A stretch of DNA of 64,000 bases from the NCBI RefSeq assembly GCF_058153355.1, contig NZ_CM177019.1; one strand, 5' to 3'. Position 1 is the first letter of the stretch, and each line of letters opens with the position of its first letter. A program made the position numbers and the translations under genes. This document shows positions 29,874 through 35,114 of this stretch, piece by piece. Below the pieces are notes generated by a model that had not been told where the DNA came from, made no database searches, and saw only the letters and a program-made list of their open reading frames with translations.

Positions 29874-32800
29874 ATGGCTTCGACAAATGCGCAGCAAATA
29901 AAAAATAATGATCAAAACTCTTTATGCGGTCTGGGTGACAAAATACGCCGCCTGGCCGCCGGAGTTTGTTTATTCACACAAATTTTTTTCCCCGTCATCG
30001 CGACGGCACAAAATGTGGTACACGCTAAACCCCAGATGACAGTTTCATCTCCTCCCCCTCTTACAGAAAATAAAACCGTACCTTACACGCTTGGCGCGCT
30101 GGAATCAGCGCAAAGTGTTGCTGACCGGTTCGGTATTTCACTGGAAGAGCTTCGTCGTCTTAATCAGTTTCGTACTTTTGCTCGCGGCTTTGATAACGTG
30201 CGTCAGGGTGAAGAACTGGATGTTCCGGCAACAACCTCGCAGAGAAGTCATGAGCTACAAAATGCCGTATCACCGGCGAATGCCGAAAACACACTGGAGA
30301 ATCAAATAGCCAGTACTTCACAGCGAGTTGGCACTCTGCTTTCACAAGGTATGAATAGTGAGCAGGCGAGCAGCATGGCGCGTGGTTGGGCGTCTTCAGA
30401 AGCCTCTGGCACGATGACTGATTGGTTAAATAACTTTGGCACCGCGAAAATCTCTCTGGGCGTGGATGAAGATTTTAGCCTGAAAAATTCGGAATTCGAC
30501 TTCCTGCATCCATGGTATGACACACCCGATTATCTGCTCTTCAGCCAGCATACTCTTCACCGAACGGACGATCGCACCCAGATCAACACCGGTTTAGGCT
30601 GGCGTTACTTCACCCCCAGTTGGATGTCTGGCATCAACCTGTTTTTTGATCACGACCTAAGCCGCTATCACTCCCGCGCGGGACTTGGCGCAGAATACTG
30701 GCGTGACTATCTGAAGTTGAGCAGCAATGCTTATATCGGCCTGACCGGCTGGCGTAGCGCACCAGAATTGGATAATGACTACGAAGCCCGCCCGGCTAAC
30801 GGCTGGGATTTACGCGCAGAAGGCTGGTTACCTGCCTGGCCGCATCTGGGTGGAAAACTGGTCTTTGAACAATACTATGGCGATGAAGTGGCGCTGTTTG
30901 ACAAGAATGATCGTCAAAGTAATCCCCATGCTATTACCGCAGGCCTCAACTATACCCCCTTCCCGCTTCTGACTCTCAGTGCAGAACAGCGTCAGGGGAA
31001 ACAAGGTGAAAATGACTCACGGTTTGCCGTTGATCTGACCTGGCAACCCAGCAGCTCAATGCAGAAACAGCTTAACCCGGACGAAGTGGCCGGACGGCGC
31101 AGTCTGGCCGGTAGTCGTTATGACCTGATTGATCGCAACAACAACATCGTTCTGGAATACCGCAAGAAAGAGCTTATCCGCCTGAGTCTGCTGGACCCAG
31201 TGAAAGGGAAATCGGGAGAAATAAAATCGCTGGTTTCCTCGCTACAGACCAAATATGCCCTGAAAGGCTATAAAATCGACGCTGCTGCGCTGGAATCTGC
31301 TGGAGGAAAAGTCAGCACTTCCGGAAAAGATATCACGGTCACGCTGCCTGGTTACCGCTTCACTAACACCCCGGAAACCGATAATACGTGGCCGATAGAC
31401 GTTACCGCTGAGGATGTAAAAGGTAATCTGTCACATCGTGAGCAAAGCATGGTCGTCATCCAGGCTCCGGCATTAAGCCAGAAAGATTCTCTGTTATCCG
31501 TTAATCCGCTAACCCTGGCAGCAGATAAAAAATCGACTACCACATTGACTGTGACTGCGCACGATTCCGACGGTACCCCGGTTCCGGGGCTGGCACTGCA
31601 AACCCGCAGTGAAGGTGTTCAGGATATCACTCTGTCTGACTGGACAGATAACGGGGATGGTAGCTACACACAGATGCTGACTGCAGGAACGACTTCAGGT
31701 TCAGTAACACTGACACCGCAACTTAACGGTGAGAGTGCGGTAAAAGAATCCATCGTCGTTAATATCGTCCCTGTTGTCTCATCCCGCGACCATTCTTCAA
31801 TATCCATAGATAACATATTGTATTATGCCGGAGACGACATCAAAGTCAGGGTAGAACTGAAAGACGACAAAAATAAACCGGTTGAATATCAAGAAGACGC
31901 GTTGGTAAAAGCCGTCACTGTCGAGAACAGCAAACCTGGCGCCACGGTTGTCTGGCACGAAGAGCATCCGGGCGTTTATGCAGCGAATTATCCGGCCCAT
32001 AAGCAAGGAGCAGCCCTGAGGGCACAACTTAGCCTTCACAACTGGAATACTCCTCTGCAATCGCATATTTATAATATCGAAGCAAACCAGAATAAGGCTC
32101 ACGTCGCCACATTATCCGCAACGAATAATGACGTTTACGCCGATAAAAAGACGTTTAATACCATCACTATTAACGTCACTGATGAGAGTGATAATCCCCT
32201 GAGAAATCATCAGGTCACCTTTAAGAATGAGAAAGGAAGCGCGGAATTTGTAGAACCGACGCAGCAAAATACTGATGCACATGGTGTTGCCACAATCAAC
32301 ATGATAAGTCAGGTTGCGGAAGAAAATACGATTAGCGCTACGCTGCCAAATGGTTCTACTCAACGGGTAACTGCGAAATTTGTTAGCGATTCGAATACGC
32401 CAAAACTCAAACAACTGGTTGCCGCGCCAGATACCATTAGTGCTGGTAATAGCCAGGGTAGTACCCTGACCGCCACCGTCACAGACTTTCATAACAACCC
32501 GTTAAAAGATATGAAAGTGAATTTTGTGGCACCAACTGACTCGCAACTGGACAACACGACCGCCACAACTGACCAGTCCGGGATTGCGCGGGTGCACCTG
32601 ACCAGTTCAAAAGCAGGTAACTATACCGTCGATGCCTCGCTTGAGGCGGATAAAAATATTCACCAGTCGGTTACGGTTACCGTGGTCCCAAACAGGGAAC
32701 AATCGGTAATTATTTTGAATGCCGGATCGGGCAGTACGATTGCTAACAATACAGATACCGTTACCCTGACTGCCAGTGTGAAAGATGTTTATGGACACTC

Positions 32801-35114: not shown

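Follow-up and report, generated by a model that had tools for sequence, protein, structure and literature searches.

The interval between the genes yjiJ and kptA in a stretch of DNA of 64,000 nucleotides (NCBI RefSeq assembly GCF_058153355.1, contig NZ_CM177019.1; the whole stretch is referred to here as the window) is occupied by a very large open reading frame (ORF), and the questions raised by this locus are what this ORF encodes, whether it represents a gene that is new, and how it is placed relative to the K-12 chromosome, which was said in an earlier note on this DNA to carry no gene in this interval. That note, made from the sequence alone, had read the ORF as a 5.2-kb gene for an inverse autotransporter (IAT) of the intimin/invasin family, 1746 amino acids (aa) long. 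The ORF is indeed located at 29874..35114 on the + strand, where the ORF list and its translation show an ATG start, 1746 codons and a stop codon, with no internal stops or frameshifts, and a hidden Markov model search finds the IAT barrel within its product. Very probably, this ORF represents an intact iatD orthologue, iatD being an accessory gene of Escherichia coli which encodes an adhesin secreted by the type Ve pathway. As iatD has already been named and partly characterised in work published in 2019, the earlier reading is correct but not new.

If the ORF is an orthologue of iatD, then it will be found in the chromosomal slot between yjiJ and kptA, by which orthologues of IatD are recognised from their position, and this is where the window gene lies. 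At the syntenic place in the genomes of strains MB50, M00057, EDL933 and SMS-3-5, the RefSeq annotation reads "iatD: inverse autotransporter IatD", and the start and stop of the window ORF are identical to those called by RefSeq for the MB50 gene, with which it shares 99.7% identity. The reference for this protein is the work of Goh et al. 2019 (mSphere, PMC6714894), in which iatD was named and cloned from SMS-3-5 (EcSMS35_4876, 5,241 bp), and was reported in 6% of 126 genomes and in 10% of the ECOR collection. In that work, SMS-3-5 IatD was surface-exposed as seen by immunofluorescence and promoted biofilm formation when overexpressed in K-12, but it caused no autoaggregation and showed no binding to extracellular-matrix proteins (PMC6714894). 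The window protein aligns with SMS-3-5 IatD without any gaps, 1576 of the 1746 residues (90%) being identical. The two proteins share the yjiJ-iatD-kptA locus, a pentapeptide-repeat gene and the same allele class of yjiK/yjiJ upstream, the length of 1746 aa and the order of domains, whereas the 10% of residues that differ are concentrated in the passenger, and above all in its tip.

A different account of the locus would be that the ORF is a mis-placed copy of intimin (eae), YeeJ or IatC, or that it is a chimera of paralogous IAT genes created in the assembly. Residues ~67-640 of the protein are very similar to YeeJ (~77% identity at the nucleotide (nt) level), and the top NCBIfam score belongs to the N-terminal model for IatC. 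However, both this score and that for intimin are far under their cutoffs (IatC_Nterm, 1135 bits against 2400; intimin_all, 382 bits against 1400), the likeness to YeeJ falls past residue ~640, and YeeJ is a protein of 2358 aa encoded at another locus, by an Asn tRNA gene. No genes of the locus of enterocyte effacement (LEE) and no gene for the Tir receptor were found near iatD, whose neighbours are yjiJ and kptA. The alignment to SMS-3-5 IatD, which spans the full length without gaps, refutes an origin from a paralogue, and a chimeric assembly is excluded because this 5241-bp gene recurs, identically placed, in several complete and independent genomes, with 638 genomes holding at least 80% of it; the probability of this account is thus negligible. 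It should be noted that none of the curated NCBIfam models reaches its cutoff for the window protein, the IatC_Nterm score given above being the best, and no IatD-specific model is among its matches; RefSeq still names the gene iatD, presumably via another rule. Due to this, the name iatD rests on synteny and full-length identity, and the absent family-model score does not weaken the orthology to IatD.

The intimin-type beta-barrel proposed for this protein is confirmed at aa 149-423 (30318..31142, +), where Pfam IAT_beta (PF11924) is matched over model positions 3-279 of 279 with an E-value (E) of 6.1e-106, and where the solved barrels of invasin (4E1T, E 5.7e-80) and intimin (4E1S, E 5.4e-67) also match. 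The barrel lies N-terminal to the passenger (aa 424-1746), as in type Ve secretion. The N-terminus (~aa 1-45; 29874..30008, +), which aligns with that of YeeJ, is predicted from inspection of the translation to be a long Sec signal peptide with a charged KIRR, a hydrophobic LAAGVCLFTQIFFPVIATA and a putative cleavage site at A-T-A|Q. Between the two is a LysM-like segment at ~aa 68-118 (30075..30227, +), probably periplasmic, which may be tentatively regarded as a LysM domain, chiefly on the strength of its near-identity to the LysM region of K-12 YeeJ, which is called LysM by Prosite. The LysM domain of YeeJ has been shown to bind peptidoglycan, and its deletion reduces surface display (PMC5595812). 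Matches to LysM proteins of known structure (4UZ2, E 0.002; LytE, E 0.024) are of modest significance. The LysM-like segment of the earlier note could thus be located and tied to a tested relative, but its Pfam match, which is considered further below, is below threshold.

The passenger begins with a stalk of 12 immunoglobulin-like (Ig-like) modules at aa 424-1630 (31143..34763, +), delimited by Pfam together with AlphaFold and Foldseek. It is made up of one D00-like module, 10 modules of the Big_1/Invasin_D3 type, of which one is without a Pfam match, and one Invasin_D4-like module. Pfam accounts for ten of the 12 modules (nine matches to Big_1/Invasin_D3 and one to Invasin_D4), whereas the stretches 424-536 and 637-743 have no Pfam match and, when compared with a profile built from IatD's own Big_1 domains, gave no significant result (probability 0.5-1.5%). 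However, an AlphaFold model of aa 424-760, with a mean predicted local distance difference test score (pLDDT) of 77.7, contains three beta-sandwich modules, and 331-333 of its 337 columns are aligned with FdeC (4E9L, E 1e-15) and invasin (1CWV); the D00-D0 region of intimin (6TQD) also matches. These two stretches are accordingly predicted, by structure modelling, to be Ig-like modules, and with them the count agrees with the "about a dozen" Ig-like domains originally proposed. The proposal that these repeats are diverged at the nucleotide level is likewise supported: the modules share 14-26% aa identity in pairwise comparisons, no direct repeat inside iatD is longer than one of 30 nt (70% identity), and tandem repeats of a domain-sized period were not found within the gene. 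Variation in repeat number in iatD was likewise not seen by Goh et al. (PMC6714894).

The stalk is followed by the C-type-lectin-like tip domain at aa 1631-1746 (34764..35111, +), whose assignment is based on AlphaFold, Foldseek and sequence alignment. An exhaustive HMMER search of representative sequences, with the last 212 residues as query, detected 279 relatives, and in all 45 of the near-full-length matches that were extracted the tip module lies no more than 4 residues from the C-terminus. In a word-indexed protein search, the tip retrieved two short fragments and aa 424-760 retrieved only proteins of less than 600 aa, and this search was not used for inferring distribution. When 38 of the tip homologues were used as the alignment for AlphaFold, the resulting model of aa 1535-1746 had a pLDDT of 95.4, and its first-ranked Foldseek match was to the D4-D5 domains of invasin (1CWV; E 6e-13, query TM-score (TMq) 0.79, root-mean-square deviation 2.7 A over 201 columns), followed by intimin (1F00, TMq 0.65) and then by snake-venom C-type lectin-like proteins. 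The tip also aligns with residues 307-462 of the invasin chain (E 3e-5). Two cysteines of the tip segment, Cys126 and Cys208 (residues 1660 and 1742), are invariant in the 38 homologues and correspond in the alignment to two cysteines of invasin, one at chain position 413 and one near the C-terminus, which we take to be C907 and C982, the disulfide-forming pair. The lectin-like tip of the earlier note is therefore borne out by its fold, and in the predicted model its structure resembles that of invasin more than that of intimin.

It might be thought, from the closeness of the tip to invasin, that IatD acts as invasin does, with a tip that binds a protein receptor of animal cells (e.g. beta-1 integrin) and could aid uptake, and that it is not a general biofilm factor. 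The best match of the tip in both structure and sequence is the D4-D5 part of Yersinia invasin, i.e. its integrin-binding module, and both cysteines that align with those of invasin are invariant in the 38 homologues. In addition, the Asp in the sequence CNAKSDGY, which is located beside a gap, is aligned by HMMER with an invasin residue that is presumably D911, if our numbering of that chain is right. However, the identity to invasin across the tip region is just 24%, and the Asp in question is not conserved among the relatives of the tip, which carry GNGY or SGY, and the alignment at this point adjoins a gap. Further, binding of the SMS-3-5 protein to extracellular-matrix proteins was not observed (PMC6714894), and YeeJ, which ends in a different C-type lectin tip, failed to bind the eukaryotic cells that were tested (PMC5595812). 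The fold also does not predict the ligand, because intimin and invasin share this fold and yet bind unrelated ligands. Integrin binding by IatD would not be predicted with confidence, and a role as an invasin-like ligand is quite improbable.

The relationships of IatD, the orthologue of which is present in the window, to the better known members of the family can be summarised from these comparisons. Invasin of Yersinia pseudotuberculosis (1CWV, 4E1T) has in common with it the barrel, the superdomain of Ig-like and lectin-like parts and the cysteine pair of the tip, but it contains 4 Ig-like domains before the tip in place of the 12 in IatD. Intimin (Eae; 1F00, 4E1S, 6TQD) of enteropathogenic and enterohaemorrhagic E. 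coli is of the same secretion class and resembles it in having a LysM or LysM-like segment, a barrel, a lectin-like tip and, among its Ig modules, D00-D0, whereas its family model is far from being reached and its match to the tip is weaker than that of invasin. K-12 YeeJ has the same overall plan (LysM or LysM-like segment, barrel, a rod of Big_1 domains and a lectin-like tip), and both YeeJ and SMS-3-5 IatD promote biofilm when overexpressed (PMC5595812, PMC6714894). The specific likeness of IatD to YeeJ, as noted above, covers the LysM region, the barrel, D00 and the first Ig module, while the YeeJ passenger past residue ~640 is much less like that of IatD, and the BLASTP alignment of the two proteins shows 50% identity over 1499 residues. 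This mosaic pattern, in which only the first ~640 codons (window 29874-31800) are similar, suggests that a translocator module may have been shared or exchanged among the large IAT genes of E. coli.

The distribution of the gene was determined with megablast, the region being compared with 5,426 complete genomes of E. coli. The gene, at the same position and named iatD by RefSeq, is present at 80% or more of its length in 638 of these genomes, with about 14 genomes matching at 99% or higher and 625 at 90-95%; the best match, at 99.7%, is MB50, a strain from poultry in Cuba. The version in the window is thus rare, being carried by about 14 of the 5426 genomes, and the other genomes with iatD carry an allele that is ~91% identical to it. 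The first seven IatD copies described by Goh et al. were more than 98% identical to one another (PMC6714894), and, as the window protein shows 90% identity to that of SMS-3-5, below this published range, it represents a divergent second allele. At least two allele lineages of IatD therefore exist, which are ~10% apart in protein sequence. For the 4 kb that flank the gene, identities of 98.4% or more are reached by only about 14 genomes, the next best of those listed being at 96.6%, so that at this locus the window groups with a small set of E. coli genomes; the listed genomes with these close flanks came from goat, cattle, poultry, pig, food and human sources.

With the M00057 allele taken as an example of the common form, the two alleles are equal in length and are 91.1% identical in nt and 89.8% in aa sequence. 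The ratio of nonsynonymous to synonymous divergence (dN/dS) between them is 0.20 for the whole gene, 0.07 for the barrel and 0.23 for the tip. The barrel is the most conserved part (97% aa identity) and the tip the most diverged (82-84%). The synonymous divergence of iatD (dS 0.26) is modestly above that of its neighbours (0.06-0.21), and its dN is about five times that of the neighbours or more. Positive selection on the tip was considered and rejected: its dN/dS is 0.23, and the excess of divergence over the flanks is mostly nonsynonymous within an overall purifying regime. The observed differences are of the ordinary kind, a surface passenger whose protein sequence evolves faster while purifying selection is maintained, and they provide no evidence for diversifying selection or for a foreign origin.

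Several observations weigh against the view that the window ORF is a functional IatD adhesin of the expected design. Besides the lack of any family model reaching its cutoff, the Pfam match to LysM (residues 78-99, E 0.021) covers only positions 8-29 of the 43 in that model and is below threshold, and the Pfam Intimin_C match on the tip, at E 0.24, is likewise below threshold. In a promoter and terminator scan, the promoter-like matches upstream of iatD were not more numerous than in shuffled sequence. Surface display and the biofilm effect were observed for the 90%-identical SMS-3-5 protein and would extend to the window allele by orthology; the ligand specificity of the window tip, this being the most diverged part, could differ from that of the protein studied. 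Lastly, expression of related IAT genes is poor under laboratory culture (PMC5595812, PMC6714894).

These observations lead to the possibility that iatD is cryptic in the window, i.e. transcriptionally silent and retained as a reservoir allele which makes no contribution to phenotype. The region between yjiJ and iatD (29664..29873, +), identified from its sequence and composition, has a GC content of 36%, and no promoter has been assigned to iatD because the counts in the scan are at chance level. Consistent with silence, the related yeeJ shows hardly any expression in laboratory culture (PMC5595812), native IatB protein was undetected even under leuO overexpression, and an inducible plasmid was the sole source of the IatD that was studied (PMC6714894). 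Further, the copy of iatD in EDL933 (O157:H7) is a frameshifted pseudogene, in which a poly-C tract at nt ~179 has changed from C7 to C8 and the first stop is at codon 66, so that iatD can clearly be lost. Against a silent gene, a good ribosome-binding site, GGAAGG, is present at 29863-29868, 5 nt ahead of the ATG, and a dN/dS of 0.20 is seen over 1746 codons, falling to 0.07 in the barrel, with the length kept between alleles that are 9% apart in nt sequence. From a purifying dN/dS together with a conserved length it follows that the protein is still under selection, and hence that it is expressed in some niche. Due to this, we regard a silent iatD as a serious but rather unlikely explanation, and an intact orthologue whose product is used under some conditions is preferred. 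Also within the upstream region, a hairpin at 29726-29747 (-14.3 kcal/mol, z -2.8) is possibly the terminator of yjiJ.

The frameshift in EDL933 also led to the consideration of phase variation via the poly-C tract. In the window allele the corresponding tract (compare 30050-30060) is interrupted, reading CCTCCCCC. Two other listed matches are 5242 bp long, one of them from O157:H7 and one from strain ERL04-3476, whose serotype is unlabelled, and in length they carry the same extra base. The sharing of this extra base points to a fixed pseudogene and not to a switch, and phase variation was therefore rejected. In EDL933, kptA too is annotated as frameshifted.

What the product of the window gene would do can be described from the family to which it belongs (intimin, invasin and YeeJ). 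The long N-terminal signal peptide would direct the protein to export by Sec, the LysM-like segment would be retained in the periplasm, where it would bind peptidoglycan and possibly dimerise, and the barrel (aa 149-423), of 12 strands, would be inserted in the outer membrane by the beta-barrel assembly machinery (BAM). The C-terminal passenger would then be threaded outward through the barrel as a hairpin and would fold into a rod of 12 Ig-like modules, holding the invasin-type D4/C-type-lectin-like tip off the cell. The ORF, its synteny, the domain architecture, the fold of the tip, purifying selection and the distribution of the gene are supported directly by the present results. Peptidoglycan binding, expression and adhesive function of the window allele would be expected by orthology, and the steps of secretion by analogy with the family.

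The question that remains is how iatD is placed in the chromosome. If iatD had been acquired as a simple insertion between yjiJ and kptA, as the first description of the locus implied, then the genes on both sides of it will be of the same kind in genomes with and without iatD. The position itself is as described. In the two iatD-less genomes that were opened, MS 119-7 and GF66.2, yjiJ and kptA are convergent and 12 bp apart; the K-12 records have the same yjiK/yjiJ allele class as these two strains, and yeeJ is the only match in them to the iatD query, which agrees with the statement that K-12 is empty at this place. However, when the window is compared with a K-12-type locus, ~96-97% homology extends up to 24834 and resumes only from 35317. 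Within this interval, yjiK, encoding an SdiA-regulated domain protein (27576-28418, +) and belonging to the iatD-linked allele class, and yjiJ, encoding a major facilitator superfamily transporter (28485-29663, +, with a start equivalent to that in RefSeq), form the left flank of iatD, and over 27576-29663 they are about 80-81% identical in nt sequence to the K-12-type alleles but 95-98% identical to the alleles of iatD-positive E. coli. The same contrast is seen between M00057 and MS 119-7, in which the flanks are 97.6% identical and yjiK/yjiJ only 80.3%. By genome, the iatD-linked class of yjiK/yjiJ was detected by megablast in 636 cases and the K-12 class in 2702, while the genes flanking them differ by just 2-4%.

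The left end of this alternative arrangement contains an espX6-like pentapeptide-repeat gene encoding 705 aa (25198..27315, +; matched by NCBIfam pentapeptide-repeat models), which in O157:H7 is named by RefSeq "T3SS effector pentapeptide repeat protein EspX6", T3SS denoting the type III secretion system. This gene is present in 635 of the 5426 genomes and in all four iatD-positive genomes that were opened (MB50, M00057, EDL933 and SMS-3-5), and it is absent from the K-12-type loci of MS 119-7 and GF66.2. Its length varies between 1974 and 2196 bp across strains, which is consistent with change in repeat number. The totals for the espX6-like gene (635), the iatD-linked yjiK/yjiJ class (636) and iatD (638) are almost equal; linkage was judged from these totals and from the four opened genomes, all of which carry the whole block. 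Because yjiK/yjiJ are ~20% diverged and the espX6-like gene is present upstream, the locus is not a clean insertion of one gene; instead, iatD appears to be part of an alternative haplotype of ~10.5 kb (window ~24835-35316), apparently co-inherited with the espX6-like gene and the divergent yjiK/yjiJ. It could be further supposed that the tip of the window IatD recognises a different receptor in the host or environment (e.g. beta-1 integrin) and acts with the espX6-like effector as a lineage-specific colonisation module, but such a supposition is highly speculative and very improbable. A third state of the locus, indicated by genomes with a match to kptA only, was also considered and rejected, as GF66.2, when opened, showed the K-12-type arrangement; the kptA-only matches arose because megablast missed the 81%-identical yjiJ.

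On the right side the haplotype ends precisely. The gene kptA, for an RNA 2'-phosphotransferase (35295..35867, -; 415 bits on NCBIfam NF002012, of which the cutoff is 233), forms the right flank of iatD, and the junction falls exactly at the stop codon of K-12 kptA (window 35295-35320, the 3' end of kptA), so that the last 6 codons of kptA in the window come from haplotype-specific DNA. Due to the position of this junction, KptA ends differently in each haplotype: the K-12 type terminates in EFLEW*, that of M00057, representing the common iatD haplotype, in EFLEWPFMPAGKQKQ*, and the window has a third distinct ending. The common haplotype and the window differ both in this C-terminus and in the downstream region with repetitive extragenic palindromic (REP) elements.

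A strong hairpin and REP units had been described after the gene, and this description is borne out. A stem-loop is located 18 nt past the stop codon of iatD (35132..35161, +); the folded 61-nt stretch has an energy of -21 kcal/mol (z -4.2), and none of 200 shuffles was as good. It is probably a transcription terminator or an mRNA-stabilising hairpin, and it was missed by the terminator scan because a long T-run is absent. It is followed by one canonical REP, GCCTGATGCG...CTTATCAGGCTTAC (35186..35214, +), found by a pattern match for which 0 occurrences are expected by chance; both the stem-loop and this REP are kept in the common iatD haplotype (M00057). The second unit is a degenerate, inverted REP-like remnant, read from the sequence at 35250..35283 on the - strand, which in pairwise alignment is absent at the locus of M00057, the one genome of the common haplotype compared. 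The DNA adjoining this remnant encodes the last codons of kptA in the window haplotype. A search of the whole window with Rfam gave no match.

Elsewhere, although MB50 has the closest iatD, the window is not colinear with its genome at 1-11334 and 14722-16596, and a derivation of the window from MB50 itself was therefore rejected. The first of these regions contains tsr (methyl-accepting chemotaxis protein I, 3406-5085, -), several transporters and regulators and an amidohydrolase. In the second, at 14789-16153 (-), between yjiA and yjiS, is an ORF of 454 aa for a GmrSD-like restriction endonuclease (Pfam GmrSD_C, E 1.5e-27; PADLOC Orf5/HEC-06, E 1e-107), from which the first ~90 N-terminal profile positions are missing; MB50 has mrr-hsdRM at this place. 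By colinearity with MB50, the regions ~47000-56500 and ~60000-64000 contain the type 1 fimbrial operon fimB-fimH, nanC and nanM, with genes for a phosphorothioated-DNA-binding restriction endonuclease and of the McrBC family past nanC/nanM. In MB50, fimB and yjiH are annotated as frameshifted. The window has an intact ORF of 231 aa (36105-36800) at the position of yjiH.

The work published in 2019 already covered the domain plan of IatD, the biofilm phenotype and the patchy distribution of the gene, and this overall picture is unchanged by the present results. The additions made here are small, viz. a second allele lineage, a haplotype block that includes the espX6-like gene, the invasin-like character of the tip and the frameshift in O157:H7 EDL933, and they could guide the search for the receptor of IatD.

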